Shown in pieces: positions 5,698 to 61,938 of a DNA stretch of 64,000 bases. Numbering within the stretch: position 1 is the first letter of the stretch; each line of letters starts with the position of its first letter. Source of the DNA: Squalus acanthias (lineage: Eukaryota); NCBI GenBank assembly GCA_030390025.1, contig CM059432.1:52578001-52642000 (forward strand), in the 5' to 3' direction. The position numbers and the translations under genes are program-made. The notes beneath the pieces were generated by a model. That model did no database searches. It was not told the DNA's origin and saw only the letters and a list, made by a program, of their open reading frames with translations.

Positions 5698-7263
5698 GGG
5701 GGAAATTCTAATGTTCTGACGCACTGGGAGCGGAGGGGTCAGTAGCGCGTGGGAAACCCAGAAGTCTAAGTTTCCCCGTGTGCTGTGGAGATTTAACTAC
5801 GCAGTGTGCATGTGACATTACTGACAGGCTCCCCGCCCGGAAGTCGGCCTGATTGAGAGGTTTGGCCTCCAGTCGGGTGGGGAACACTGGAGAGCAGGCC
5901 GCAGCCCCAGGTAGGTCCGAGCACCGACCCCAGAGGGGTCCGATCCCCGGGGGGGTCCAATCCCTGACCCCAGGGGGTGCGATCCCGGGGGGGTCCAATC
6001 CCGACCCCAGGGGGTCCGATCCCAGGGGGGTCCAATCCCCGACCCCAGAGGGTCCGATCCCAGGGGGGTCCAATCCCCGACCCCAGGGGGTCCGATCCCA
6101 GGGGGGTCCAATCCCCGACCCCAGGGGGTCCGATCCCAGGGGGGGTCCAATCCCTGACCCCAGGGGGTCCAATCCCGGGGGCGGGGGTCCAATCCCCGAC
6201 CCCAGGGGGTCCGATCCCAGGGGGGTCCAATCTCCAACCCCAGGGGGTCCGATCCCAGGGGGTTGGGTCCAATCCCCGACCCCAGGGAGTCCGATCCCAT
6301 GGGGGTCCAATCTCCAGCCCCAGGGGGGCCGATCCCGGGGGGGTGGGTCCAATCCCCGACCCCAGGGGATCTGATCCCGGGGGGTCCAATCCCCGACCCC
6401 AGGGGAGCTGATCCCGGGGGGTTGGGTCCAATCCCCGACCCCAGGGGGTCCGATCCCGGGGGGTCCAATCCCCGACCCCAGGGGGTCCGATCCTGGGAAG
6501 GGTGCAATTCCCGACCCCGGTGTGGGTCCGATCCTGGGGGTGTCCGATCCCCAACCCCAGGGTGGGGGGGGCTTATATGGGGGTGGCTGATGATGGGGTG
6601 CTTGGGGGAAGCACTCCTGCTCCTCCTAGCCCACAAGGAATGCTCCCCAGCCGGCCACAGCGACACCTGGAGATTCAACTCAACAGCGTGTGTCTGACGA
6701 CATTGACAGGTTCCCCACCCGGAAATCAGCCTGATTGACAGGCTTGGCTTCCAGTCGTGCGGAAAGCACTCTAGAGGAGGCCGCAAGATGAGATAGGTCT
6801 GATCCCCTACCCCGGGGGGGATCCAATCCCGGGATGTCCGATCCCCGACCTGGGGGGGGGGGAGTCTGATCCCTGACCCCGGGGGAAGTTTGTATGGGTG
6901 GGGGGGGGGCTGATGGTGGAGACTTGGGGGGCTGGGAGGAAGCATTCCTGCTACTCCCAGCCCACAAGGAGTGCTCCCTGAGGCTGTCCTCGTCTCGCTG
7001 CAGCTGCCAGGATTCCCGAGGCCAGGAAACCCGGCCGGCCACAGGTTAAATCCGATGGTTCCAGCCTCATTATCATATTTAAAGTGCCAACTCGCCTCTT
7101 GGGAGTGGGCTGGCTTCCCGCTCCCCCCCACTCCCCTCCCGTCCCGCCTCCGGTAAAACCGGAAGTGGGCAGGTTGGAGGCGGGTTGGGGTTGGGATTCA
7201 GACTTTTAGCACTTTAACCTCCCTCCCAACCCAAACCCGCCCATTTTTTGGAGTTAAAACTCC
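5698..7263. mobile_element. Non-autonomous DNA element (Harbinger-type termini) with internal minisatellite
   Basis: Shares subterminal sequence with 8965-9804 and 11419-12595 (cgggaaacccag, gagatttaact, ccggaagtgggc, gttaaaa). Confidence 0.65.
5925..6560. repeat. GC-rich minisatellite, about 38-bp unit (ccccgaccccagggggtccgatcccaggggggtccaat)
   Basis: Directly visible tandem array. It explains the Pro/Gly-rich ORFs in all frames. Confidence 0.9.
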
Positions 7264-23261: not shown

Positions 23262-25210
23262 ATCGCTGCAGGAGTTCCTCAGGCCAGTGTCCTAGGTCCA
23301 ACCATCTTCAGCTGCTTCATCAATGACCTTCCCTCGATCATAAGGTCAGAAGTGGGGATGTTCACTGATGATTGCACAGTGTTCAGTTCCATTCGCAACT
23401 CCTCAGCTAATGAAGCAGTCCATGCCACATGCAGCAAAACCTGGATAACATCCAGGCTTGGGCTGATAAGTGGCAAGTAACACTCGCACCACACAAGTGC
23501 CAGGCACTGACCATCTCCAACAAAAGAGTCTAACCACCTCCCCTTGACATTCAATAGCATTACCATCAACATCCTGGGGGGTCACCATTGACCAGAAACT
23601 TAACTGGACCAGCAACATAAATACTGTGGCTACAAGTGCAGGTCAGAGGCTGGGTATTCTGCGGTGAGTAACTCACATCGTGACTCCCCAAAGCCTTTCC
23701 ACCAACTACAAGGTACAAGTCAGGAGTGTGATGGAATACTCTCCACTTGCCTGGATGAGTGCAGCTCCAACAACACTCAAGAAGCTCGACACCATCCAGG
23801 ACAAAGCAGCCCGCTTGATCGGCACCCCAACTGAAGGGATATTTACTAGTCCTAGCCCCTTTGGGGTTATCCAGATCAGGCGTATTTCTCAGGCGTTCAC
23901 TTTCAACTAAAGTTTGAGGTAGCCGAATCCTAAAGATACTTAATTGAGTCTAAAGGTCCGGGCTATCGCTCCCTAAAGGAAAGGAACAACCCGAGAATGT
24001 TACCGTCCTCCAGATAGCGCTTTTAATAAGTTTAGCTAGACTGCAACGTGCCGGATATTATGAGGGTCCAGAGAACTCCTTCAGAATTCTGTAACTCTTC
24101 ACCAAAGAGTGTACAGAGATTGAGTTTGCGAGTTGTTGATACAGAAGACTTATGTGAGACAATTCTAAAAATATACAGAGATTTATTAAAGAACCGACAT
24201 GCAATTTACAGTTGGTGAATCAATCAATCGCAACGTTAACAGTTCTAAAAAGAGAAAAAATACGATCTTTTTAACAGAGAATCTTACTTTTAAATCTTAA
24301 CTTCGCTACAGTATTACAGTTCTTAAAGTTTTCTGTGCAGGATATCCATCAATATCAAATACCTTTGATCCCCGAGGTACAAAGAGTTGGAGAGCACAGA
24401 GCCGCCTCTATGGTCAAGAATTGCTTTGCCTGATTAAAGCAACTCTGATATCCCATTTGAGAGTTCAATATTTATACCCTTTTCAGTGGTATTTCCTTTA
24501 AAGTTTCTGCTGATGCAAGTCAATTATCCCTATTCATCTTTCTGCCGACCTCTGCAATTCTTACTGCTACATCAGCTTGTAATATTCCAGAATCTTGTCT
24601 TTCTCCAGGTGTTCTGGGTTAACCATATAAAACGGTGTGAAGGGCAGGTGTTCCTTATTTTATGTGCCATCTTTACAAAGTTTAAATTAAAACACCTCAA
24701 TCCAGTATGTACCATTGTTTTGTTCCCAAAAGGTCAGCTTATCGGAGCCATGCACCTTCTGTTTCAATAAGGTTATTTATTCAGGGTCAACAACTGTCTT
24801 ATCTCAATAGCCAGAATTCTTTCATAGCTATTTCATAGTTAGGTTTCTAAATTTCCAAACCCAGTTTGTCATGTTTTAATAAGGCCAGAATTCTTTCATA
24901 AGATAATGTATTTTTCTGAATAGGTTATATGGCTTATTCCTTCACACATCCACCACCTTAAACATTCAATCCCTCCACCACCAGCGCAACATGGCTGCAG
25001 TGTGTACCATCTACAAGATGCGCTGCAGCAACTCGCCAAGGCTTCTTCGACAGCACCTTCCAAACCCGCGATTTTGACCCAACGATGATGAAGGAATGGT
25101 GATATATTTTCAAGTCAGGATGGTGTGTGACTTGGAGGGGAACTTGAAGGCGGTGGTTTTCCCATGTGCCTGCTGCCCTTGTCCTTCTAGGTGGTAGAGG
25201 TCGTGGGATA
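23262..25210 (+). mobile_element. CR1-group LINE (same family as 33.7-36.7 kb), 3' RT portion split by a solo LTR, last about 140 bp inverted
   Basis: GVPQ.SVLGPTIFSCFINDLP and QVRSVMEYSPLAW. The sequence resumes collinearly after 24944. Confidence 0.85.
23832..24944 (-). mobile_element. Solo LTR (retrovirus/LTR-retrotransposon), 1113 bp
   Basis: TG...CA termini with inverted repeat TGAAGG(G/A)ATA. On minus: TATAAATA 24469-24476, then AATAAA 24182-24187. Duplicated 17-mer gccagaattctttcata in U3. Interrupts a LINE. Confidence 0.75.
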
Positions 25211-25219
25211 ACATATGAA

Positions 25220-31128: not shown

Positions 31129-33167
31129 TTATTCCAAGTCAGCTGGTTCATCAGGAATATCCATGCCAGCTGAGTCATCAGGATCATGCACTTCCACAGA
31201 TTCCACAGATTCTTCAGGCACTTAGAGAAACATAGAATCTAGGTGCAGGAGTAGGCCATTCGGCCCGTCGAGCCTGCTCCACCATTCAATACGATCATGG
31301 CTGATCATCCAAATCCAGTACCCTGTCCCTGCTTTAATCCCCACAGTACACATATCCCACCCTACCCCCGTAACCCCACATATTTAATTCCCCCTAACAT
31401 ATCCCATCCTATCCCCATAACCCCACATATTTAATCCCCCCCTAACACTAAGGGTCAATTTATCATAGCCAAATCAACCTACCCCGCACATTACTTCCGC
31501 TGCTTCGACTCTTTTGGAAGCTTTCTTAAACATGTTGCGGATGTCGGCTTGCTTAGTGGACTCTTGCCTTTTCTGTAGAAACGTGGAATGCAGAATATGG
31601 AGTTGCATAACTTCTTGGGCAGAGTAGCAAGGTTGTCTTTCAGCAAATTGGAGGATTGAAGAAAATCCTTCTGCAGCTTTAGCCCAAGAAATCTTGTTCT
31701 CTTCAGAAATCTCATCCTCTTCACTTTCCATCTCACTTTCCTTTTCTTTCTTTGGATTCAAAACACTCTCAATTATTTCATCATCACTTAGCATATGCAC
31801 AACAGCAACTTCTCTATCTGCATCAACCCACTGCTCGATATCACTTTCACTGAGGTGACGTAGAGGGTTTGCTAGGCCTACATTTTTCACCATGCCAGCC
31901 ATTTCCATTATTGTACTCTTCTTGGGATGAACATTGAACCCATGAAATTCCTCCTCTGAAGAAGAACCTTCAGCAAACATTACAGAAGGCCACAATTTGC
32001 GCCAGGCTTGCCTCAGAGTGTGACCTTTCACCAAGTTCCAGGAACATGCAACATTATAGATGGCATCTTTAATACCGTATTCCTTCTGAAATGCGTGAAT
32101 ATTGTCATCTTGGTTTATCAGTTTACGTAGGAAGTCTTTCTTGTAATGACACTTCAGATTTTGGATAACGCCCTGATCCATGGGTTGTATGAGAGAAGTT
32201 ACATTTGGTGGCAAATAAATGATGAAAATATTTCCCGAAACCAACTCGGATTCATGCGGATGGGCTCTACAATTATCAAGCAATAAAATGCATTTGCTAT
32301 CTTCAGGTTTCCCTATTTTACGGAAATGTTCCCTCACAGATGGAACAAAAATATGATGGAACCAATAGGAGAAGATTTCCTTATCCATCCAAGCATTTTT
32401 TTGATCTTTGTACTCAACAGGTAAGTGCCTCACATTTTTAAATGCACGGGGATTTTTATACTTCCCAATAACAAGAAGTTTAACCCGGTGTGATCCAGCA
32501 GCGTTCGCACATGTTAGCACGGTTACATGATCTTTATTTTTCTTGTAACCTGAAGCATTAGCCTCACTAGCCCCAGCAAGCGTTGATTCTGGCAAAAACC
32601 TCCAAAACAAGCCAGTTTCATCGGCATTATATATCTGTGCTGGCGACAAATCATGTTGCTGCACAATCCGATTGAAATAATCGCAGTATTCTTCTGCGGC
32701 ATCGTGATCAGCTGATTTCTTCTCCCCGGAAATATCGAGTCGTCGTATCCCGTGCCGTAACTTGAAGCACGTTAGCCATCCCTCAGAGGAAGCACACTTG
32801 TCAGTGAGCTCCATCCTTTCGTAGAAATCCTTCGCTTTCTCGATTAGCATGGTCCGGAAAGTGGAACACCCTCTGAACGCTTAAGAGAAAACCACTCATA
32901 AAGCACGGTATCCAGCTCTTCAAGCTTAGGCTTACAAAGCGTACACCGTTTCTCTACACTCTTAGATGTCTCCGAGCTTGAATAAAACTTGAGCAGCTTA
33001 TCCTTCTGCGATTTGATGTCGTAGATTGTTGATGAACCGATTTTGAATTCATTCCTAATGTTGATACGCTTCTCTCCCCTTTCTAGTCGTTGGCATATCT
33101 CGATTTTCTGTTTAAAAGTTAACACCACTCTCTTCCTTTTGCTTGGACCAGCTTTTGGGAATTCCAT
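31129..33167 (-). pseudogene. Tigger/jerky-like transposase (psq-type HTH, CENP-B HTH, DD32D), one frameshift and a SINE insertion
   Basis: [17 protein letters not shown]...[39 protein letters not shown] (32 residues between the 2nd and 3rd Asp). Frameshift at about 32850. Confidence 0.9.
31224..31492 (-). mobile_element. 5'-truncated HE1/V-SINE-like SINE inside the transposase gene
   Basis: Matches the 3' half of 54270-54651. ACTT is duplicated at 31220-31223 / 31493-31496. Confidence 0.85.
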
Positions 33168-33722
33168 AATGCAAGATGGGGGAGATAATTCCCGATAAAG
33201 ATGGAGAGACACACAGAAAAATGGTGGCTCGGAAGAGACTACCAGCAGCGCGGGAGACACACAGTAAAATGGCCGATCAGAAGAGACTACCAGCAGCGTG
33301 GGAGAATCAGACTCCTGTTATTGCGGTGTTCGGACTTCCCACAGCGCTGGGAAGCCGAGTAGTGGCACTTTGGAGAACTACCCCCACTGACTAACTCGGC
33401 GTTCGCGGGAGACTCGGACTTGGCAACATTGCCGGTTATTGGGGAGGAGTTTTTGGAGTATGAATTTTGCCGGTTAATAGAGAATTCCGGATATTTAGGT
33501 GCCGTTTAAACGAGAGTTTCCTGTAGTTAAACATGATTTGCCTTTAACAAATCCCTGCTGGCTTTCCTTAATTAATTCACACTTGTCCAAGTGACTGTTA
33601 ATTTTGTCCCGGATTACTGCTTCTAAAAGCTTCCCCACTACCGAGGTTAAACTGACTGGCCTGTAGTTGTTGGGTTTATCTTTATACCCTTTTTTGATCA
33701 ATGGTGTAACATGTAACATATA

Positions 33723-36700
33723 GGGAACGGTAGCATAGTGGTTAAGTTACTGGACTAGTAATCCAGAGGCCTGGACTAATGATCCAGAGACGTGAGTTCA
33801 AATCCCTCCACAACAGCTGGGGAATTTAAATTCAATTAATTAATTAAATAAATCTGGAATTAAAAAAAAAAAGTTAGTATCAGGATCGGATTGTCGTAAA
33901 AACCCATCTGATTCACTAATGCCCTTTAGGGAAGGAAATCTGCCATCCTTACCTGGTCTGGCCTATATGTGACTCCAGACCCACAGCAATGTGGTTGACT
34001 CTTAACTGCCCTCTGAAATGTCCTAGCAAGCCACTCAGTTGTAACAAACCGCTATGAAACACAACAATAAGAATAAAACCGGACGGACCACCCGGCATCG
34101 ACCTCGGCATTGGCTACGGACACGACAGTCGTCCCTGCAAAGTCCTCGTCACTAACATCTGGGGACTTGTGCCAAAATTGGGAGAGCTGTCACACAGAAT
34201 TGTTAAGCAACAGCCTGACAGAATCATTCCTTTCAGCCAATGTCCCAAACTCCTCCATCACCATCCCTGGGTGGCGGCACAGTGATATACAGTCGGGAAG
34301 GTAGTGGCCCTGGGAGTTCTCAACATCGATTCTGGACCCCATGTCTTCAGGTAAAGCATGGGCAAGGAAACCTCCTGCTGATTACCACCTACCGCCCTCC
34401 CTCAGCTGATGAATCAGTACTCCTCCATGTTGAACACCACTTGGAAGAAGCACTGAGAGCAGCAAGGGCACAGAATGTACTCTGGGTGGGGGACTTCAAT
34501 GTCCATTACCAAGAGTGGCTCGGTAGCACCACAGCTGGCCGAGTCCTGAAGGACATAGCTGCCAGTCTGAGCCTGTGACAGGTGGTGAGAGAACCAACAT
34601 GAGGGAAAAACCTACTTGACCTCGTCCTCACCAATCTATCTGTCGCAGATGCATTGGTAGCAATGACCACCGCGCAGTCATTGTGGAGATGAAGTCCCAT
34701 CTTTACACTGAGGACACCCTCCATCGTGTTGTGTGGCACTACCACTGTGCTAAATGGGATAGATTCAGAACAGATCTAGCAGCTCAAAACTGGGCATCCA
34801 TGAGGCGCTGTGGGGCAGCAGCAGAATTGTATTCCACCACAATCTGTAACCTCATGGCCTGGCATATCCTTCACTCTAGCATTACCATCAAGCCAGGGGA
34901 CCAACCCTGGTTCAATAAGGAGCGTAGAAGAGCATGCCAGGAGCAGCACCAGGCGTACCTAAAAATGCGGTGCCAACCTGGGGAAGCTGCAACACAGGAC
35001 TACATGCAATCTATAAAGCGGAAGCAGCATGCTATAGACAGGGCTAAGCAATCCCAGAATCAACGGATCAGATCAAAGCTCGGCAGTCCTGCCACATCCA
35101 GTTGTGAATGGTGGTGGACTATTAAACAACTAACAGGAGGAGGAGGCACCATGAAAATCCCCATCCTGAATGATGGTGGAACCCAGCACGTGATATCAAG
35201 AAATGGCTGAACGCACTGGATACAGCAAAGGCTATGGGCCCGACAACAGTCCTGCTGAAGACTTGTGCTCCAGAACTAGCCGCGCCTCTAGCCAAGCTAT
35301 TCCAGTACAGTTACAACACTATCCGACAATGTGGAAAACTACCCAGGTATGTCCTGTCCACCAAAAGCTGGAGAAATCCAATCCGGCCAATTACCGCCCC
35401 ATCAGTCTACTCTCAATCACCAGCAAAGTGATGGAAGGTGTCGTCGACAGTGCTTTCAAGCGGCACTTGCTCACGGATGCCCAGTTTGGGTTCCGCCAAG
35501 ACCACTCGGCTCCAGACCTCATTGCAGCCTTGGTCCAAACATGGACAAAAGAGCTGAATTCCAGAGGTGAGGTGAGAGTGACTGCCCTTGACATCAAGGC
35601 AGCATTTGACCGAGTGTGGCATCAAGGAGCCCTAGTAAAACTGAAGTCAATGGGAATCAGGGGGAAAACTCTCCATTGGCTGGAGTCATACCTAGCACAA
35701 AGGAAGATGCTTGTGGTTGTTGGAGGTCAATCATCACAGCCCCAGGACATCGCTGCAGGAGTTCCTCAGGGCAGTGTCCTAGGCCCAACCATTTTCAGCT
35801 GCTTCATCAATGACCTTCCCTCCAACATAAGGTCAGAAATGGGGATGTTCGCTGATGACTGCACAGTGTTCAGTGCCATTCGCAACTCCTCAGATAATAA
35901 AGCACTCCATGCCCGCATGCAACAAGACCTGGACAATGTTCAGGCTTGGGCTGATAAGTGGCAGGTAACATTCATGCCACAGAAGTACCAGGCAATGACT
36001 ATCTGCAACAAGCGAGAGTCTAACCACTGCCCCTTGACAACAAGAGCAGGTCAGAGGCTAGGTATTCTGCGGCGAGTGTCTCACCTCCTGACTCCCCAAA
36101 GCCTTTCCACCATCTACAAGGCACAAGTAAGGAGTGTGATGGAATTCTCTCCACTTGCCTGGATGAGTGCAGCTCCAACAACACTCAAGAAGCTCGACAT
36201 CATCCAGGACAAAGCAGCCCGCTTGATTGGCACCCCATCCACCACCTTAAACATTCACTCCCTCCACCATCGGCGTACTGTGGCTGCAGTGTGTACCATC
36301 TACAAGATGTACTGCAGCAACTCGCCAATGCTTCTTCGGCAGCACCTCCCAAACCCTCGACCTCTACCACCTAGAAGGACAAGGGCAGCAGGCGCATGGG
36401 AACACCACCACCTCCAAGTTCCCCTCCTAGTCACACACCATCCTGACTTGGAAGTATTTTTTTTAATCGTTTATGGGATGTGGGTGTCGCTGGCAAGGCC
36501 AGCATTTATTGCCCATCCCATTCCTTCATCGTCGCTGGGTCAAAATCCTGGAACTCCCTCCCTAAACGCACTGTGGGAGTACCTTCACTGTACGGACTGC
36601 AGCGGTTCAAGAAGGCGGCTCACCGCCACCTTCTCAAGGGCAATTAGGGATGGGCAATAAATGCTGGCCTTGCCAGCGACGCCCAGATCCCATGAAGAAT
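33723..36700 (+). mobile_element. CR1-group LINE with tRNA-like 5' head, single EN+RT ORF (frameshifted), stem-loop 3' tail
   Basis: A box 33731-33741, B box 33794-33805. EN begins about 34142 (VLVTNIWGLVPKLGEL; YRPP, GDFNVH). RT in 35203..36660 ([33 protein letters not shown]). Confidence 0.85.
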
Positions 36701-37322
36701 TTTTTTTTTTTAATTTGCAATTCTCCAGTCCTCTGGCACCACCCCCGTGTCTAAGGTGGATTGGAATATTATGGCCAGTACCCCCGCGATTTCCTCCCTC
36801 AATTCCCTCAGCATCCTAGGATGCATCCCATCCGCTCCTGGTGATTTATCTACTTTAAGTACAGCCAGCCTTTTTATTACCTCCTCTTTATCAATGTTTA
36901 TCCTATCATGTATCTGCACTACCTCCTCCTTTACTATGGCTATGGCAGCATCCTCTTTCTTGGTGAAGACAGATGCAAAGTACTCATTTAGTACCTCAGC
37001 CATACCCTCTGCCTCCATGCATAGGTCTCCTTTTTGGTCCCAAATTAGCCCCACCCCTCCTCTTACTACCGTTTTACTATTTATATGCCTATAGAAGACT
37101 TTTGGATTACCTTTTATGTTGGCTGCCATTCTATTCTCATACCTTCTCTTTGCCCCACTTATTTTCTTTTTCATTTCTCCTCTGACCTTTCTATATATAG
37201 CCTGATTCTCAGATGTATTTGCAACCTGACATCTGCCATAAGCACCCTTTTACATCTTCACCATATTCTCTATCTCTTTCGTCATCCAGGGAGCCCTGAC
37301 TTTAGTTGCCCTGCCTTTCCCC

Positions 37323-38255
37323 CTAGTGGGAATGTACCTCAACTACCTGAACTATTTCCTCATTAAAGGCAGCCCATTGTTCCATTACAGTTTTTCCTGC
37401 CAATCTTTGATTCCAGTTTACCCGGGCCAGATCCGTTCTCATCCCACTGAAATTGGCCTTCCCCCAGTAAAACATTTTTACTCTAGATTGCTCCCTGTCC
37501 TTTTCCATAGCTAATCTAAACCGTATGATACCATGATCACTGTTCCCTAAATGTTCACCGACTGACACTTGCTCCACTTGACCTACCTCATTCCCCAGAA
37601 CCAGATCCAGCAATGCCTCCTCTCTCGTCGGGCCGGAAACATACTGATCAAGAAAGTTCTCCTGAACACACTTCAGAAATTCTTCCCCTTCTCTGCCCTT
37701 AACACTATTACAATCCCAGTCTATATTAGGATAGTTGAAGTCCCCCATTATTACTACTCTATAGTTCTTGCACCTCTCTGTAATTTCTCTGCAAATTTGC
37801 TCCTCCATATCTTTCCCACTATTTGGTGGTCCATAGAATACACCTAGTAGTGTAATGGCACCTCTATTATTTCTTAACTCTAGCCATATAGATTCTGTCC
37901 TTAACCCCTCCAGCACATCCTCCCTATCCAGCACTGTAACATTCTCCTTGACCAATACTGACACGCCACCGCCTATCTTTCCTTCCCAATCTTTCCTGAA
38001 CACTTTATAACCAGGAATATTTAATACCCAATCCTGCCCTTTTTTGAGCCAGATCTCAGTTATTGCCACATCATATTCCCATGTGGCTATTTGTGCCTGC
38101 AGCTCACTTACCTTGTTTACTACGCTTCGTGCATTCACATACATATACTGTAAACCTATCTTAGACCATCCTGTATTCTCCCTTAGTTTGACCCCACCTA
38201 ATACCTTACTATTTCTTACTTTAATGCTCCCTGCCTCTCCCAATCCTTTGAGCAC
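37323..38255 (-). pseudogene. CR1 ORF2 APE endonuclease domain
   Basis: NARS..NK..EL, ITE.WL, GGGV, Y.PP, MGDFNYP, PTR..ALLDL, SDH. Confidence 0.9.
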
Positions 38256-38305
38256 TTTATTTCCCCATTCTAATGTTACATCCTTGTGCCCATCCCCCTG
38301 CCAAA

Positions 38306-39258
38306 TTAGTTTAAACCCTCCCCAACAGCACTAGCAAACCTCCCCGCGAGGATATTGGTTCCGGCCCTGTTGAGGTGCAACCCATCCGGCCTGTACAGGT
38401 CCCACCTCCCCCAGAACCGGTCCCAATGCCCCAGGAATCTAAAGCCCTCCCTCCTGCACCATCTCTCCAGCCACGCATTCATCTTTGCTGTCCTCCTATT
38501 TCTATACTCACTAGCGCGTGACACCAGCAGTAATCCGGAGATTACTACCTTTGAGGTCCTGCTTTTTAATCTCTTTCCTAGCTCCCTGAAATCTGCCTGC
38601 AGGACCTCATCCCTCTTTCAACCTATGTTGTTGGTGCCGATATGGACCACAACCTCTGGCTGTTCACCCTCCCGCCTCAGAATGTTCTGCAGCCGCTCAG
38701 TGACATCCTTGACCCTGGCACCAGGGAGGCAACATACCATCCTGGAGTCACGTCTGCGGCTGCAGAAACGCCTGTCTGCTCCCCTAACTATCAAATCCCC
38801 TACCACTATTGCTTTCCCACTCTTCTTCCTCCCCCCATGTACAGCTGAGCCACCCGTGGTGCCGCAGACTTGGCTCTGGCTATACTCCCCAGAGGAACCA
38901 TCACCCTCACCAGTACTCAGAACCGAATACTGGTTGGAGAGCGAGATGCACTCAGGGGACCCCTGCACTACCTGCCTGGTCCTCCTCTTCTGTCTGGAGG
39001 TCACCCATTCCCTTTCTGCCTGCAGACTCTTTTTATCTGCAGGGTGACCACCTCCTGAAACGTGCTATCCACAAAGCTCTCAGCCTCACAGATACACCAC
39101 AGTGGCGCCAGCTGCTGCTCAAGCTCCAAAACCCGGAGCTCGAGCTCCTCCAGCTGATGACACTCTCCTGCACGTGGGGTTGTCCAGGACAGGGGAAACG
39201 TCCTGGAGTCCCCACATGGCACAGGATGTGCATTCCACAGGACTGAGCTGCCCTGCCA
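38306..39258 (-). pseudogene. CR1 ORF1 (zinc finger/coiled coil + SGNH esterase), disrupted
   Basis: LEELELRVLELEQQL coiled coil, then VVGD.IVRG, CCLPGARV.D, VVHIGTN and DGLHLN esterase motifs. Confidence 0.85.
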
Positions 39259-45622: not shown

Positions 45623-46793
45623 TTAATGCCTACAGTGCTGAAACAGGCCCCAGCACAGCCTAACCTGCTAACTGAAACGTGCCCCACCCAATGCATATTG
45701 GCTTCTATTTTTGCCCATCAAAGCTGTCTCCTCCATTGGTGCACTGACGCTGACCATCAATTCTATTTCCTATTTTATTCTGGAATGCTCACAAGAGTTA
45801 GATATTTCCTCAATTCTAGCAGACTCCTGGACAATCCAGAGTTATTGCAACCCTAACAGGAAGAGAAGCCATTGCTGGAAATCATCTGGCTACAATACAT
45901 TGGAGGACTGTATCAAAGGCTGATGTTCTCCACATGTTCAGTGCCTGTTCACAATTGATGCTGAAGGGGAGATGAAATGTAAAAATTTAAACTATTTTCC
46001 CGGGTTACCCTCCCCTTGCAATAGGGCCATTCAGTATTTATGTCCCTTCATTTGCTTGCCCATAGCCAATTCTTTAAAGGAGTTTTTGTACCTAAAAAGG
46101 AGTTTTTTTAAAGGGGCTACTTTAAGAACAGCCAGTAGCTCTTCCATAACTTGTTGCACGTCATGTGCTAGGCAGTCAGAGTGCCACAAAAAGATTTAAA
46201 CGAGTTAATCTCACATAATCAGAAAAGATGACCTCAGTGAGGTGTATGGAAACACCATGGCAGCCCTAAATAAACTGATCAGTACAACTGTATATGAGAT
46301 TAAAAACAGAAAATGCTGGAAATACTCAGCAGATCAGGCAGCATCTGTGGAGAGAGAAACAGAGTTAATGTTTCACTTAATTAGATTGGGATCCCCGGCG
46401 GGACGGTCATTAGCGGTAACAGATCTGACTCATACAATAGCAAACTCGCACAGATCGCGCCAGGAAGCAGAGCTGACAGGGGACTATTGTTATGGGGATA
46501 GTCAATATCATATGAATATTGTTCGTCACTGAGAGGGGTTAATTTCTTTGGCGATAGGGATGTCTTTGAGTTCAAAAGTGCCAAGTAACATACCTCACCC
46601 GTCGTGATTTAAAGAAAAATGTAGGACCAACACAAACGTGCCGATGAGATTTGTGCCGTTTTATATTAGATAGTTTATGAGAGGGAAAAGAAAGACTTCT
46701 CCAGCAGACATTAAAATAATCCCCATTCTGGAAGTGTGCTACAGCCTCGAGACTAATAAGAAGATTACTAATTTGCTTCACCTTGGCTGTGAG

Positions 46794-47368
46794 CCCCCGC
46801 CCGGAGCCACAGACTGGATGCGCGCGCCCCCGCTCCTGACTGGGTGTGCGCGCCCCCCGCCCGGAGCCACTGATAGAGTGTGCGCGCCCCCGCCCGGAGC
46901 CACTGATAGAGTGTGCGCGCCCCGCCCGGAGCCACTTACAGCGTGCGCGCCCCCGCCCGGAGCCACTGATAGGGTGCGCGCGCTCCCGCCCGGAGCCACT
47001 GACTGGATGCGCGCGCCCCCGCTCCTGACTGGGTGTGCGCGCCCCCGCCCGGAGCCACTGATAGGATGTGCGCGCTCCCGCCCGGAGCCACTGACTGGAT
47101 GCGCGCGCCCCCGCTCCTGACTGGGTGTGCGCGCCCCCGCCCGGAGCCACTGATAGAGTGTGCGCGCCCCCGCCCGGAGCCACTGATAGAGTGTGCGCGC
47201 CCCCGCCCGGAGCCACTGATAGAGTGTGCGCGCCCCCGCCCGGAGCCACTGATAGAGTGTGCGCGCCCCCGCCCGGAGCCACTTATAGTGTGCGCGCCCC
47301 CGCCCGGAGCCACTGATAGGATGTGCGCGCTCCCGCCCGGAGCCACTGACTGGATGCGCGCGCCCGCT
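46794..47368. repeat. 33-bp CpG-rich minisatellite (cccccgcccggagccactgatagagtgtgcgcg) with variant and higher-order units
   Basis: Period 33 (e.g. ccggagc at 47141 and 47174). Gives 11-aa repeat ORFs. Confidence 0.95.
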
Positions 47369-47369
47369 T

Positions 47370-47460
47370 GGAGGCACAGCCAGAGCGCCGGGCTGCGGGT
47401 CACGTGGGCCGGCCTTTCGCAGACAGAATTGGACCTGGAACCAGAACAGGAAGCGCAACG
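47370..47460 (+). promoter_or_regulatory. CpG-island-type promoter
   Basis: Unique CpG-rich sequence with E-box GTCACGTGG (47399-47407) and ETS CAGGAAG (47447-47453), GC boxes in the adjacent VNTR, and a strong donor downstream. Confidence 0.6.
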
Positions 47461-54044: not shown

Positions 54045-55350
54045 AGTTTTTTTTGTTCGTTCCTGGGATGTGGGCATCGCTGGCAAGGCCAGCATTTATT
54101 GCCCATTCCTAATTGCCCTTGAGAAGGTGGTGGTGAGCCGCCTTCTTGAACCGCTGGAGTCTGTGTGGTGAAGGTATCCCACAGTGCTGTTAGGGAGGGA
54201 GTTCCAGGATTTTGACCCAGCGACGATGAAGGATCGGCGATATACTTCCAAGTCAGGATGGTGTGTGACAACACGGTGGCATAGTGGTTAGCACTGGTGC
54301 CTCACAGCGCCAGGGACCCGGGTTCGAATCTGACCTAGGGTGACTGTCTGTGTGGAGTTTGCACATTCTCCCCGTGTCTGCGTGGGTTTCCTCCGGGTGC
54401 TCCGGTTTCCTCCCACAGTCCAAAAATGTGCGGGTTAGGTTGATTTGGCTATGATAAATTGACCCTTAGTGTTAGGGGGGGATTAAATATGTGGGGTTAT
54501 GGGGATAGGATGGGATATGTGTACTGTGGGGATTAAAGCAGGGACAGGGTACTGGATTTGGATGATCAGCCATGATCGTATTGAATAGTGGAGCAGGCTC
54601 GACGGGCCGAATGGCCTACTCCTGCTCCTAGATTCTATGTTTCTATGTTTCTGTGTGACTTGGAGGTGGTGGTGTTCTCATGCGCCTGCTGCCCTTGTCC
54701 TTCTAGGTGGAAGAGGTCGCGGGTTTGGGAGGTGCTGCCGAAGAAGCCTTGGCGAGTTGCTGCAGTGCATCTTGTAGATGGTACACACTGCAGCCACGGT
54801 ACGCTGGTGGTGGAGGGAGTGAATGTTTAAGGTGGTGGATGGGGTACCAATCAAGTGGGCTGCTTTGTCCTGGATGGTATCGAGCTTCTTGAGTGTTGTT
54901 GGAGCTGCACTCATCCAGGCAAGTGGAGAGTATTGCATCACACTCCTTACTTGTGCCTTGTAGATCATCGTCGTCGCTGGGTCAAAATCCTGGAACTCCC
55001 TACCTAACAGCACTGTGGGAGTACCTTCACCACACGGACTGCTGCGGTTCAAGAATGCGGCTCACCACCACCTTCTCGAGGGCAATTAGGGATGGACAAT
55101 AAAGGCTGGTCTTGCCAGCGACGCCCACATCCCATTTAAAAAAGAACGAATAAAAAAAATGGTGGAAAGGCTTTGGGGAGTCAGGAGATGAGACACTCGC
55201 TGTAGAATACCCAGCCTCTGATCTGCTCTTGTTGCCACAGTATGTGGCTGATCCAGTTAAGTTTCTGGTCAGTGGTGACCCCCAGGATGTTAATGGTGGG
55301 GTGTTCGGTGATGGTAATGCTGTTGAATGTCAAGCGGCGGTGGTTAGACT
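54045..55350 (-). mobile_element. tRNA-headed LINE family 3' portion, with a SINE (54270-54651) and an opposite-orientation tail of the same family (about 54965-55160) inside
   Basis: IYKAQVRSVM.YSPLAW...LDTIQDKAA, tail stem-loop on both strands. Confidence 0.85.
54270..54651 (+). mobile_element. Full-length HE1/V-SINE-like tRNA-derived SINE
   Basis: A box TGGCATAGTGG, B box GGTTCGAATC, V-domain GGAGTTTGCACATTCTCCCCGTGTCTGCGTGGGTTTCCTCCGGGTGCTCCGG, CR1-like tail. TSD TGTGTGAC (54262-54269 / 54652-54659). Confidence 0.9.
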
Positions 55351-57712: not shown

Positions 57713-60700
57713 AAACACTTAGAAGAAGCACTGAGAGTAGCAAGGGCACAGAATGTACTCTGGGTCGGGGACGTCAATGTCCATCACCAAGAGTGGCTCG
57801 GTAGCGCCACTATTGACCGAGCTGGCCGAGACCTGAAGGACATAACTGCCAGACTGTGCCTGCGACAGATGGTGAGAGAACCAACACAAGCAAAACATAC
57901 TTGACCTCGTCCTCACCAATCTACCCGTCGCAGATGCATCTGTCCATGACGGCATTGGTAGCAGTGACCACCACACAGTCATTGTGGAGACAAAGTCCTG
58001 TCTTCACACTGAGGACACCCTCCATCGTGTTGTGTGGCACTACCACCATGGTAAATGGGATAGATTCAGAATAGAGCGAGTAGCTCAAAACTGGGCATCC
58101 ATGAGGCGCTGTGGGCCATCACAGCAATAGAATTGTATTCCACCACAATCTGTAACCTCATGGCCCGGCATATCCCTCACTCTACCATTACCATCAAGCC
58201 AGGGGAGCAACCCTGGTTCAATAAGGAGTGCAGAAGAGCGTGCCAGGAGCAGCACCAGGCGTACCTGAAAATGAGATGCCAACCTGGGGAAGCTGCAACT
58301 CAGGACTACATGAACGCTAAACAGCGGAAGCAGCATGCTATGGACAGAGCTAAGCAAACCCACAATCAATGAATCAGATCAAAGCTCTGCAGTCGTGCCA
58401 CATCCAGTCATGAATATGGTGGGCAATTAACCAACTAACTGGAGGAGGAGGCTCCAGGAATATCCCCATTCTCCGTGATGGCGGAGCCCAGCACGCAAGT
58501 GCGAAAGACAAGGCTGATGTGTTTGCAGCCATCTTCAGCCAGAAGTGCCAAGTGGATGATCCATATCGACCTCCTCCCACCATCACAGAAGCCAGTCTCC
58601 AGCCAATTCTATTCACTCCACGTGATATCAAGAAATGGCTGAGCGTACTGGGTACAGCAAAAGCTGTGGGCCCCAACAACATCCCAGCTACCGTGCTGCA
58701 GACTTGTGCTCCAAAACTAGTTGCGCCTCTAGCCAAGCTGTTCCAGTACAGCTATAACACTGGCATCTACCCGACAATGTGGAAAAGCTTTTGTAGTGGG
58801 GAAGATTTAGAAACTATAATCTGGGACAAAATTAAGTCACTTGGACAGGTATGGATAAATGAAGGAAAGCCAGCATAGATTTGTTAAAGGCAAATCGTGC
58901 TTAACTAACTTGATTGAGTTTTTTGATGAGGTGACCGAGGGTTGATGGGCAATGCAGTTGAGGTGGTGTATATGGACTTCCAAAAGGCGTTTGATAAGTG
59001 CCACATAATAGGCTTGCCATCAAAGTTGAAGCCCATGCAATAAAAGGGACAGTGGCAACATGAATACGAAATTGGCTAAGTGACAGGAAACAGAAAATAA
59101 TGGTGAACGGTGTCTTTCGGACTGGAGGAAGGTATACAGTGATGTTCCCCAGGGGTCGGTACGAGGACCACTGCTTTTCTTGTTATATATTAATGACTTG
59201 GACTTGGGTGTACAGGGCACAATTTCAAAATTTGCAGATGAGACAAAGCTTGGAAGTACAGTGAACATTGAAGAGGATAGTGATAGACTTCAAGAGGACA
59301 TAAACAGGCTGGTGGATTGGGCGGACACGTGGCAGATGAATTTTAATGCAGAAAAGTATGAAGTGTTACATTTTGATAGAACGAGGAGAGGCATTATAAA
59401 CTAAAGGGTATAATTCTAAAGGGGGTGCATGAACAGAGACCTGGGGGTATATGGGCACAAATTGTTGAAGGGGGCAGGTTGAGAAAGCAGTTAAAAAAGC
59501 ATATGGGATCCTGGGCTTCATAAATGGAGTCATAGAGTACAAAAGCAAGGAAGTTGTAATGAACTTTTATAAAACACTGGTTTGGCCTCAACTTGAGTAT
59601 TGTGTCCAATTCTGGGCCCCACACTTTAGGAAGGATGTGAAGGCCTTAGAGAGGGTGCAGAAAAGATTTACAAGAATGATTCCAGGGGTGAGGGACTTCA
59701 GTTACGTGGATAGACTGGAGAAGCTGGGTTTGTTCTCCTTGGAGCGGAGAAGGTTGAGAGGAGATTTGATACAGGTGTTCAAAATCATGAGGGGTCCAGA
59801 TAGAGAGAAACTGTTCCCATTGGTGGAAGGGTCGAGAACCAGAGGACACAGATTTAAGGTGATTGGCAGAAGAACCAAAGGCAACATGGAAAAACTATTT
59901 TACGCAGTGAGTAGTTAGGATCTGGAATTCACTGCCTGAAAAGGTGGTGGAGGCGGGCTCAATCGTGGCTTTCCAAAGGGAGTTGGATAAGTACCTGCAG
60001 GAAAAAAAAATTGCAGGGCTATGGGGAAAGGGTTGGGAAGTGGGACGAGCTGAAGTGCTCTTGCAGGGAGTCGGCACAGGCTCGACAGGTCAAATGGTCT
60101 CCTTCTGTACTGTAACCATTCTATGATTCTATGAAAACTGCCCAGGTATGTCCTGTTCACAAAAAGCAGGACAAATCCAATCTGGCCAATTACCACCCCA
60201 TCAGTCTACTCTCAATCATCAGCAAAGTGATGGAAGGTGTCATCAACACTGCTATCAAGCAGCACTTAATCATCAACAACCTTCTCACCGATGCTCAGTT
60301 TGAGTTCCACCAGGACCACTCTGCTCCAGATGTCTTTACAACTTTGGTCCAAACATGGACAAAAGAGCTGAATTCCAGACGTGAGGTGAGAGTGACTGCC
60401 CTTAACATCGAAGCAGCATTTGACCAAGTGTGGTATCAAGGAACCTTAGTAAAAATTGAAGTGAGTGGGAATTGGGGGAAAACTCTCCACTGGCTCGAGT
60501 CATACCTAGCACAAAGGAAAATGGTTGTGGTTGTTGGTCAATCATCTCAGCCCTAGGACATCACTGCAGGAGTTCCTCAGGGCAGTGTCCTAGGCCCAAC
60601 CATCTTCAGCTGCTTCATCAATGACCTTCCCTCATCATAAGGTCAGAAATGGGGATGTTCGCTGATGATTGCACCGTGTTCAGATCCATTCGCAACTCCT

Positions 60701-61510
60701 CAGATAATGAAACAGTCCATGCCTGCATGCAGCAAGACCTGGACGACATTCAGGCTTGGGCTGATAAGTGGCAGGTAACATTCGCGCCACACAAGTACCA
60801 GGCAATGATTTTCTCCAACAAGCGAGAGTCTAACCACTGCCCCTTGACATTCAATGGCATTACCATCGCCGAATCCCCCACCATCAACCTTCTGGGGCTA
60901 ACCATTGACCAGAAACTTAACTGGACCAGCCGCATAAATAATGTGGCAACAAGAGCAGGTCAGAGGCTGGGTATTCTGCGGTGAGTGTCTCATCTCCTTA
61001 CTCCCCAAAGCCTTTCCACCATCTAGGTACAAGTAAGGAGTGTGATGGAATACTCTCCACTTGCCTGGATGAGTGCAGCTCCAACAACGCTCAAGAAGCT
61101 CGACACCATCAGGACAAAGCAGCCTGCTTGATTGGCACCTCATCCACCATCTTAAACATTCACTCCCTCCACCACTGGCGCACTATAGCTGCAGTGTGTA
61201 CCATCTACAAGATGCACTGCAGCAACTCTTCAAGGCTCCTAAACCCGCAACTTCCACCTAGAAGGACAAGGGCAGCAGGCACATGGGAGTACCATCACTT
61301 GCAAGTTACATACCATCCTGACTTGGAAATATATTGCCATTCCTTCATCGTCGCTGGGTTAAAATCTGGAACTCCCTACCTAACAGTACTGTGGGAGTAC
61401 CTTCACCACACAGACTGCAGCGGTTCAAGAAGGTGGCTCACCACCTCGAGGGCAACTAGGAATGGGCAATAAATGCTGGCCTTGCCAGCGACGCCCACAT
61501 CCCATGAACA
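57713..61510 (+). mobile_element. 5'-truncated copy of the tRNA-headed LINE family, split by a CR1
   Basis: HLEEALRVARAQNVLWVGD through RT to the tail. The frame ...YPTMWK|TAQVCPVHKK rejoins across 58787-60132. Confidence 0.88.
58787..60132 (+). mobile_element. CR1 LINE 3' portion nested in the above
   Basis: PQGSV.GP, KFADETKL, LERVQKRFTRM, tail attctatg. Short gaaaa duplication at the junctions. Confidence 0.88.
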
Positions 61511-61938
61511 AATATTTAAAACATTTTGGCTGCTTTAATTTTGAACTCTTGACAAGTCAAAAAACTGATAGTGAATGCAGCAACATTGAATAAATGCATT
61601 CTGAGACAGAAACCTCCATGTCCCTCATAGATTGACCTCTAGCTCTGCATCATGTGATTACATGCCCTGTCTGCAACTGATCTGTCAACTTGAGTCACTA
61701 CATAGTTCTACTGTACAGTACTAAATGCATGTATTTGGACACCGAAATGAATGTGTTTTAAGCTGACTGTTCTCGTGATCATTTTAAAACACAATATTTA
61801 GCAGAATTTGTGTTCTGTAAAGCTTTATGAAAGATAGTGAGTTGAGACACAATAAACTTGATATTTTAAGTGCCTTGTCTGGTTATACTTCTGTATTTAT
61901 ACCAGAATTTCAGTTTTTTTGTGTGCATGGCATTTAAA

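Follow-up and report, generated by a model that had tools for sequence, protein, structure and literature searches.

A family-wide tRNA-like head in elasmobranch Zenon LINEs: a candidate Pol III promoter and a predicted AUG-free translation start

In the textbook division LINEs are protein-coding and transcribed by Pol II, while SINEs are non-coding and transcribed by Pol III. The protein of a CR1-group LINE binds a hairpin at the 3' end of its RNA and inserts that RNA by target-primed reverse transcription. Kojima reportedly found in 2018 that SINE bodies contained 5' parts of RTE and Vingi only. Within the CR1 group, the Zenon sections of Stuart et al. 2026 (PMC13343379) give the lack of ORF1 as a trait of the Zenon clade; they do not discuss a 5' head or the start of translation, and neither 'tRNA' nor 'Pol III' occurs in the main text. 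Zenon in bivalves mobilises separate SINEs, according to the relevant part of PMC11481361, and the available portion of a whale shark preprint (10.1101/443036) names CR1-Zenon only. Searches of open-access literature listings turned up neither a description of the head reported here nor a coding LINE driven by Pol III.

A second point of reference is viral. In the intergenic IRESs of dicistroviruses, PKI mimics an anticodon paired to a codon and sets the reading frame (excerpts of PMC10275262). The passages available from a 2013 review (PMC3894237) mention intergenic region (IGR) IRESs in non-LTR elements as no more than a possibility, which if real would call for a new look at the concept of ORF2, and those from a virome-mining paper on intergenic IRESs (PMC12221177) make no mention of retrotransposons.

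We analysed a 64-kb stretch of shark-like DNA rich in repeats (the window), which holds a dead copy of an elasmobranch Zenon LINE sitting in a CR1. An abundant Zenon family and its missing ORF1 are known; the family-wide tRNA-type head is, on the sequences compared, real and not in the literature searched. We lean slightly towards the reading that this head likely drives Pol III and that the uncapped RNA has a predicted AUG-free start at an anticodon-mimic fold.

A decayed Zenon copy inside a CR1

The copy and its surroundings are listed in Table 1. Zenon membership was judged from the 5' 400 nt against consensuses that had been classed by RT phylogeny; the proteins nearest to the RT of the copy are unnamed and 40-45% identical. 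The copy has the single APE-RT ORF without ORF1 that marks Zenon, and the poly(A) tail of the clade is seen as A-rich tails on other copies (c4, c5, c7), on a nested fragment and in the read consensus, its own tail being short. It shares with SINE2 elements a tRNA-derived head with A and B boxes, below the Rfam gathering threshold, and it is neither short nor non-coding. Against the second copy in the window the identity is 89.9% over 2148 columns, with 12 deletions (302 nt in total) and frameshifts. No plus-strand frame longer than 45 codons lies within 33723-34150, so the copy has no ORF1. The earlier note had observed this and taken it as an anomaly for the CR1 group; the absence is real, other Zenon elements lack ORF1 too, and it is already a published Zenon trait (Zenon sections of PMC13343379).

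Table 1. Features of the Zenon copy, its host CR1 and the second Zenon copy
Feature	Position	Strand	Basis or remark
Full-length but decayed Zenon LINE	33723..36699	+	First 400 nt colinear with SquAca_Zenon-1, by eye
tRNA-like head with extra hairpin at variable-arm position	33723..33815	+	Rfam tRNA match with 22-nt insertion
Pol III A box, TAGCATAGTGG	33731..33741	+	8 nt from 5' end
Pol III B box, GAGTTCAAATCC	33794..33805	+	Motif search
Conserved non-coding 5' UTR body	33886..34040	+	Nearly invariant, sharks and ray (by eye)
Hairpin with 7-nt anticodon-like loop CTAGCAA (34023-34029)	34013..34038	+	Hairpin scan
GCT triplet, may pair with loop AGC; predicted codon mimic in leader frame	34051..34053	+	
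Lys/Arg-rich leader before endonuclease, frameshifted in this copy	34054..34141	+	Translation
APE endonuclease domain, broken	34142..34700	+	Pfam PF14529, E 7.8e-7; tblastn with P0001
Reverse transcriptase domain	35374..36012	+	Pfam PF00078, E 8.6e-35
Nested antisense piece of Zenon's own last ~60 nt	36457..36519	-	Self-match; private to this copy
3' hairpin immediately 3' of stop TAG (36645-36647)	36647..36691	+	Fold z -2.4
Host CR1, part 3' of insertion in CR1's sense	33524..33712	-	Cut off by Tigger/pogo-type DNA transposon
Host CR1, 5' part: ORF1 remnant, endonuclease, linker	36714..39240	-	
Second Zenon copy, 5'-truncated within endonuclease, headless	57716..61517	+	CR1 interrupts at ~58787-60132

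As had been claimed, the host CR1 resumes on the far side of the complete unit: once its flanks are joined, three other CR1-like stretches match them through the junction, and its frame is open up to the break from either side. No target-site duplication flanks the insert; a 7-nt repeat occurs on the 5' side only. The stem-loop tail that the earlier note described was also recovered, and an AATAAA at 36656 lies in an internal loop of this hairpin. Many contigs from the read runs skip the nested antisense fragment.

Several other features of the neighbourhood were recorded. Directly 3' of the copy stands a run of 12 T (36700-36711), where other copies have the A-rich tail; it occurs in this copy only, and Pol III would terminate at it. 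Twice in the 64 kb, short Zenon tail pieces lie antisense within another Zenon copy (36457-36519 and 54968-55159), and at 24947-25211 two Zenon pieces lie face to face; self-targeting or inversion upon insertion is a possible cause of such arrangements. The Tigger/pogo-type transposon (31474-33525, minus strand) sits in the same host CR1, adjoins the Zenon copy and is apparently well preserved, with a 468-aa open transposase frame that contains DDE_1 (E 1.4e-54) and HTH. Self-comparison of the window shows two tandem repeat arrays as well, at 5906-6562 and 46793-47385.

The tRNA-like head and transcription

The tRNA-type A and B boxes which the earlier note saw opening the insert were located, and they belong to a head that is family-wide. 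In the window copy the likeness to a tRNA is partial. Rfam tRNA scores 19.6 bits against 33730-33809, under the gathering score of 29, ARAGORN finds no tRNA at the head, and the head folds no better than shuffles (z +0.6). The extra hairpin is approximately a duplicate of the anticodon-arm hairpin, with CTGGACTA at 33750 and again at 33771, and the whole may resemble a long-arm tRNA such as tRNA-Ser. On both strands of the window the A-box/B-box pattern occurs at two places, in the head at 33731 and at 54277. The latter belongs to a distinct short tRNA-headed repeat (54270-54650, plus strand) with a CR1-type tail, which lies within a Zenon fragment and is a putative HE1 / V-SINE.

Consensus comparisons were made by eye over the first 400 nt that are visible per consensus in the supplement of Stuart et al. 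2026 (PMC13343379). The same head, body and coding leader open all seven elasmobranch Zenon consensuses (SquAca_Zenon-1 to -3, CarCar_Zenon-1, ScyCan_Zenon-1, RhiTyp_Zenon-1 and HypSab_Zenon-1), which represent five species: white shark, whale shark, catshark, dogfish (three consensuses) and stingray. By eye over the same 400 nt, none of the three hagfish and coelacanth Zenon consensuses has the tRNA-like head, the body or the leader. In read run X9, unrelated flanks precede exactly base 33723 in 870 contigs, which marks it as a common 5' boundary; with the seven consensuses these contigs establish the head-to-ORF junction as a family trait and not a peculiarity of the locus, in line with the earlier note. 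The contigs of runs X1 and X9 are short, and none among those listed spans that junction.

A one-off chimera, whether through a SINE landing ahead of a truncated LINE, through one template switch or as an artefact of consensus building, would fit the headless second copy, the failure of self-comparison to find a second instance of the head in the 64-kb window, and a head depth in run X9 of about twice that of the endonuclease region, although contig depth, when summed, does not measure copy number, so that depth figures serve as a hint only. We rejected it as very improbable because the identical junction recurs in all seven consensuses and five species with species-specific changes. The families of Stuart et al. 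2026, where legible, were moreover scored on 59-2313 copies each with top insertions of 2.9-4.3 kb (PMC13343379), the window copy is colinear with the consensuses, and the host CR1 is continuous on both sides of it.

Among relatives, ARAGORN found no tRNA head in 17 of 17 loci, nor did Rfam in the 11 loci scanned, and blastn gave no match to the head. Exact-pattern scans for shark Zenon copies returned none from viral, metagenome or bacterial genome contigs, and in a protein scan of viral contigs 0 of 24 stretches were confirmed. A SINE-like short derivative made of head plus tail, another suggestion of the earlier note, is hinted at by four X21 reads (run total 149) that pass from the 3' end of the body into the final ~60 nt of the tail, and by contig depth, which in X1 as well as X9 is highest in the bin covering the body; self-comparison of the 64-kb window yields no such derivative.

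Transcription of elasmobranch Zenon by Pol III is, on these sequences, probable. The SINE-derived head might instead serve or accompany a Pol II internal promoter, the RNA being capped and the shortage of T runs a side effect of a coding strand rich in C and poor in T, a reading that we hold to be a minority possibility. The architecture of the head speaks against a Pol II origin: the 5' end is fixed 5-10 nt ahead of the A box in all seven consensuses, and both boxes are preserved while the sequence between them has diverged. The B box is canonical (GGTTCGAATCC) in three of the seven and one step off (AGTTCAAATCC) in another three; that of stingray is degenerate, which suits Pol II better. The extra hairpin, compared by eye between dogfish and the three other sharks, shows two paired changes that preserve the stem.

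The second line of evidence is the scarcity of TTTT on the sense strand. A template built as the majority of the window's Zenon copies (3208 nt; 923 of its 3222 columns rest on one copy) has no sense TTTT, where base shuffles give 4.8 (P = 0.006) and dinucleotide shuffles 2.6 (P = 0.055), and has nine TTT against 23.3 (base, 0/2000 shuffles) and 15.8 (dinucleotide, P 0.012); as a sign of Pol III the absence is suggestive only. In 6.9 kb of Zenon copies in the window there are two sense TTTT, each missing at the same place in other copies. The single one in the copy of Table 1, at 35792, runs through a position (35793) where C makes up 98% of the contig depth in each of the two runs, and the T run at 36457 belongs to the nested antisense tail fragment. 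None of the seven elasmobranch 400-nt heads contains TTTT, whereas two of the three hagfish and coelacanth rows contain several (by eye). Sense TTTT number 3.2-5.3 per kb in five other LINE stretches of the window; related ORFs on metagenome contigs, seven in all, carry 9-21 each (2.9-7.0 per kb). The five LINE stretches, and an AT-rich linker that is still without TTTT although its A runs reach 11, argue against a mere by-product of coding composition. To the credit of Pol II stand the weak significance against dinucleotide and codon nulls and the host CR1, which is likewise TTTT-poor (2 in 2.5 kb, P 0.01). With codon-preserving nulls the T-run scarcity is not significant in two decayed Zenon copies (P 0.57 and 0.20), nor is a Phe codon bias of TTT versus TTC (P 0.10 and 0.20). 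The scarcity that the earlier note had pointed out is thus real in comparison with other LINEs and borderline against composition-aware nulls, and the copy itself is not free of TTTT.

The 3' end is ambiguous. In T+ SINEs, Pol III transcripts can be polyadenylated via AAUAAA (parts of PMC11240701), and the AATAAA of the Zenon tail is equally compatible with Pol II, for which, together with the A-rich tail, it can be counted. The same holds for the 5' ends of lepidopteran Zenon, which according to the available part of PMC6740152 are without tRNA homology or a Pol III promoter.

The anticodon-like hairpin and the start of translation

The earlier note had described a head of 420 nt that enters the endonuclease directly, followed by RT. 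Its tRNA-type non-coding start and both domains are confirmed, the domains by Pfam; a basic leader precedes the endonuclease, and since this leader is in the endonuclease frame, the last ~90 nt of the supposed head are most likely coding and the 5' UTR is ~330 nt. Comparable basic leaders are found in P0003, P0005 and P0010. The body of the 5' UTR belongs to no Rfam family and has no meaningful match. The hairpin at its 3' end is intact in six of the seven elasmobranch consensuses; the window copy carries a mutation at one base of the stem, and folding that copy by itself does not yield the hairpin. Twelve nt 3' of the hairpin stands GCTA, whose bases could pair with the loop.

The window copy has this GCT in the leader frame, as do four of the seven consensuses (four of five species). 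It is off-frame in all three dogfish consensuses, two of which are deletion-ridden, and the whale shark consensus has a length change of 1 nt before GCT and of 3 nt after it (by eye). There is no conserved in-frame AUG after GCT. Stingray is the only non-dogfish row visible over the whole stretch up to the endonuclease; it has no in-frame AUG from GCT to the endonuclease and an Arg-rich leader.

A hairpin scan covered 11 of 17 metagenome loci. The closest relatives, L001 and L002, which have no tRNA head, possess an AGC-loop hairpin and an in-frame GCT, with stems of 12 and 11 bp that differ in sequence. In both, AGC stands at the anticodon position and GCT-ACA lies 34 codons upstream of the endonuclease motif. 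Per shuffled 250 nt the chance of such a motif is <=0.001 for an AGC loop and 0.01-0.016 for a loop of any sequence with four pairs. The two loci belong to a single family, L001 lacks the fourth loop-triplet pair, and its RT is 48% identical to that of the window Zenon. The other nine of the 11 scanned loci lack the hairpin-GCT motif, three of them having little upstream DNA. Among 10 N-termini that are long enough, P0005 and P0010 have Ala-Thr at this same distance, 35-36 residues from the endonuclease motif. The shark stem is short. Across the window, L001 and L002 the stems differ yet hold and the loop-GCT pairs are invariant; as these pairs never vary, they give no covariation support. Rfam matches no IRES family and no HDV-like ribozyme in the 5' UTR, and the fold of a single-copy 5' UTR is no better than shuffles; ribosome-binding domains of the PKII/PKIII kind were not found in it.

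A dicistrovirus-like start of the Zenon ORF, by an anticodon-codon mimic, is accordingly proposed tentatively, at somewhat less than even confidence. A Pol III RNA might start otherwise, from the out-of-frame ATG with frameshifting or reinitiation, or by scanning to a near-cognate codon, the hairpin having a different job. An ATG does follow the A-rich linker in the leader of six of the seven consensuses, out of frame; over its visible part SquAca_Zenon-2 has ATG in the endonuclease frame, and the leaders of L002 and P0003 contain an in-frame Met. In stingray, however, this ATG is out of frame and the other frame reads Asn-Glu within an Arg-rich leader like that of the relatives, and in L001, which has the hairpin and GCT, the first Met comes only immediately ahead of the endonuclease. 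We judge a start of this other kind unlikely.

Three observations on the relatives are added. L001:541-3700 is an intact single-ORF element (933 codons without a stop) whose AGC-loop hairpin lies at 610-640 and whose A-rich tail is short. Upstream of the hairpin in L002 (390-430), TGATCT, in what may be a stem, is similar to the L1.1a loop motif described for type 6 IRESs (excerpts of PMC10275262), perhaps by chance. The more distant P0019 has a 2A-like GDIHPNPGP before the endonuclease in place of the basic leader.

A proposed mechanism and comparison with known systems

In sharks and a ray, the Zenon family has this head as its fixed 5' end. We propose that TFIIIC would bind the internal A and B boxes and that Pol III would transcribe the 3.3 kb, which a sense strand without TTTT makes possible, stopping at the first T run of the flank, as for SINE transcripts. 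In the RNA, the loop (U)AGC and the downstream GCU(A) may form a pseudoknot like domain 3 (PKI) of the dicistrovirus intergenic IRES, and the ribosome would decode from the codon after GCU into the basic leader, the endonuclease and the RT. The protein would bind the 3' hairpin, and target-primed reverse transcription would leave many 5'-truncated copies. That Pol III transcription and the anticodon-mimic start hold together is, from sequence, a doubtful conjunction.

The relatives suggest an order of events. L001, without a tRNA head, has nine TTTT in its ORF. An AUG-free start in relatives that lack the head would be older than the head: a cap- and AUG-independent start would have come first, and an elasmobranch Zenon ancestor so equipped would have been able to swap in a SINE-type promoter, its lineage then losing T runs. 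This history draws on one outgroup family (L001/L002). A start mimic that is an older trait of the Zenon lineage, and as such would be the first IGR-IRES-like start known from a cellular mobile element, combined with Pol III transcription from a captured head, is a speculative reading. If true, a coding element with a SINE-type promoter has been kept in sharks and rays, which breaks the LINE/SINE split, and a vertebrate has a natural Pol III-made mRNA. If working, it would be a compact module for cap-free expression and insertion.

Among described elements the elasmobranch Zenon consensuses are the same as the window copy in their colinear 5' 400 nt, single EN-RT ORF, lack of ORF1, A-rich tail and length of ~3.3 kb; in sequence only decay differs. 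With tRNA-derived SINEs (SINE2; SacSINE1, PMC5499810; T+ SINEs, PMC11240701; both sources in part) the family shares the A/B-box 5' head and a conserved body, as well as a LINE-type 3' hairpin and AATAAA near the tail. Unlike them it has its own EN-RT over 2.6 kb, and the T terminator that T+ SINEs have before the tail (available part of PMC11240701) is missing. SacSINE1 has a Deu body and an L2 tail (Luchetti 2017, PMC5499810, in part), whereas the tail here is Zenon's; identity with SacSINE1 is doubtful, and the head is therefore not filed under that name. Reading the body as SacSINE1's Deu domain was considered and not retained; the body motifs were not found in two of three files of the MetaSINE supplement.

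Lepidopteran Zenon and Persaeus are alike in being a single-ORF CR1-group LINE with a poly(A) tail and a short derivative of head plus tail (parts of PMC6740152). Persaeus is internally deleted and carries Zenon's 5' end, and, in the same parts, that end has neither tRNA homology nor a Pol III promoter.

The type 6 IRES of dicistroviruses (domain 3/PKI; PMC10275262 and PMC3894237, in excerpts) is similar in that the loop of a hairpin can pair with a triplet further 3', and in a non-AUG frame, and the 5' body is of similar length (~165-170 nt). Zenon differs in being a retrotransposon, known here from sequence, in which neither IRES domains 1-2 nor their motifs were found; it is a concrete candidate for an IGR-type IRES in non-LTR elements.
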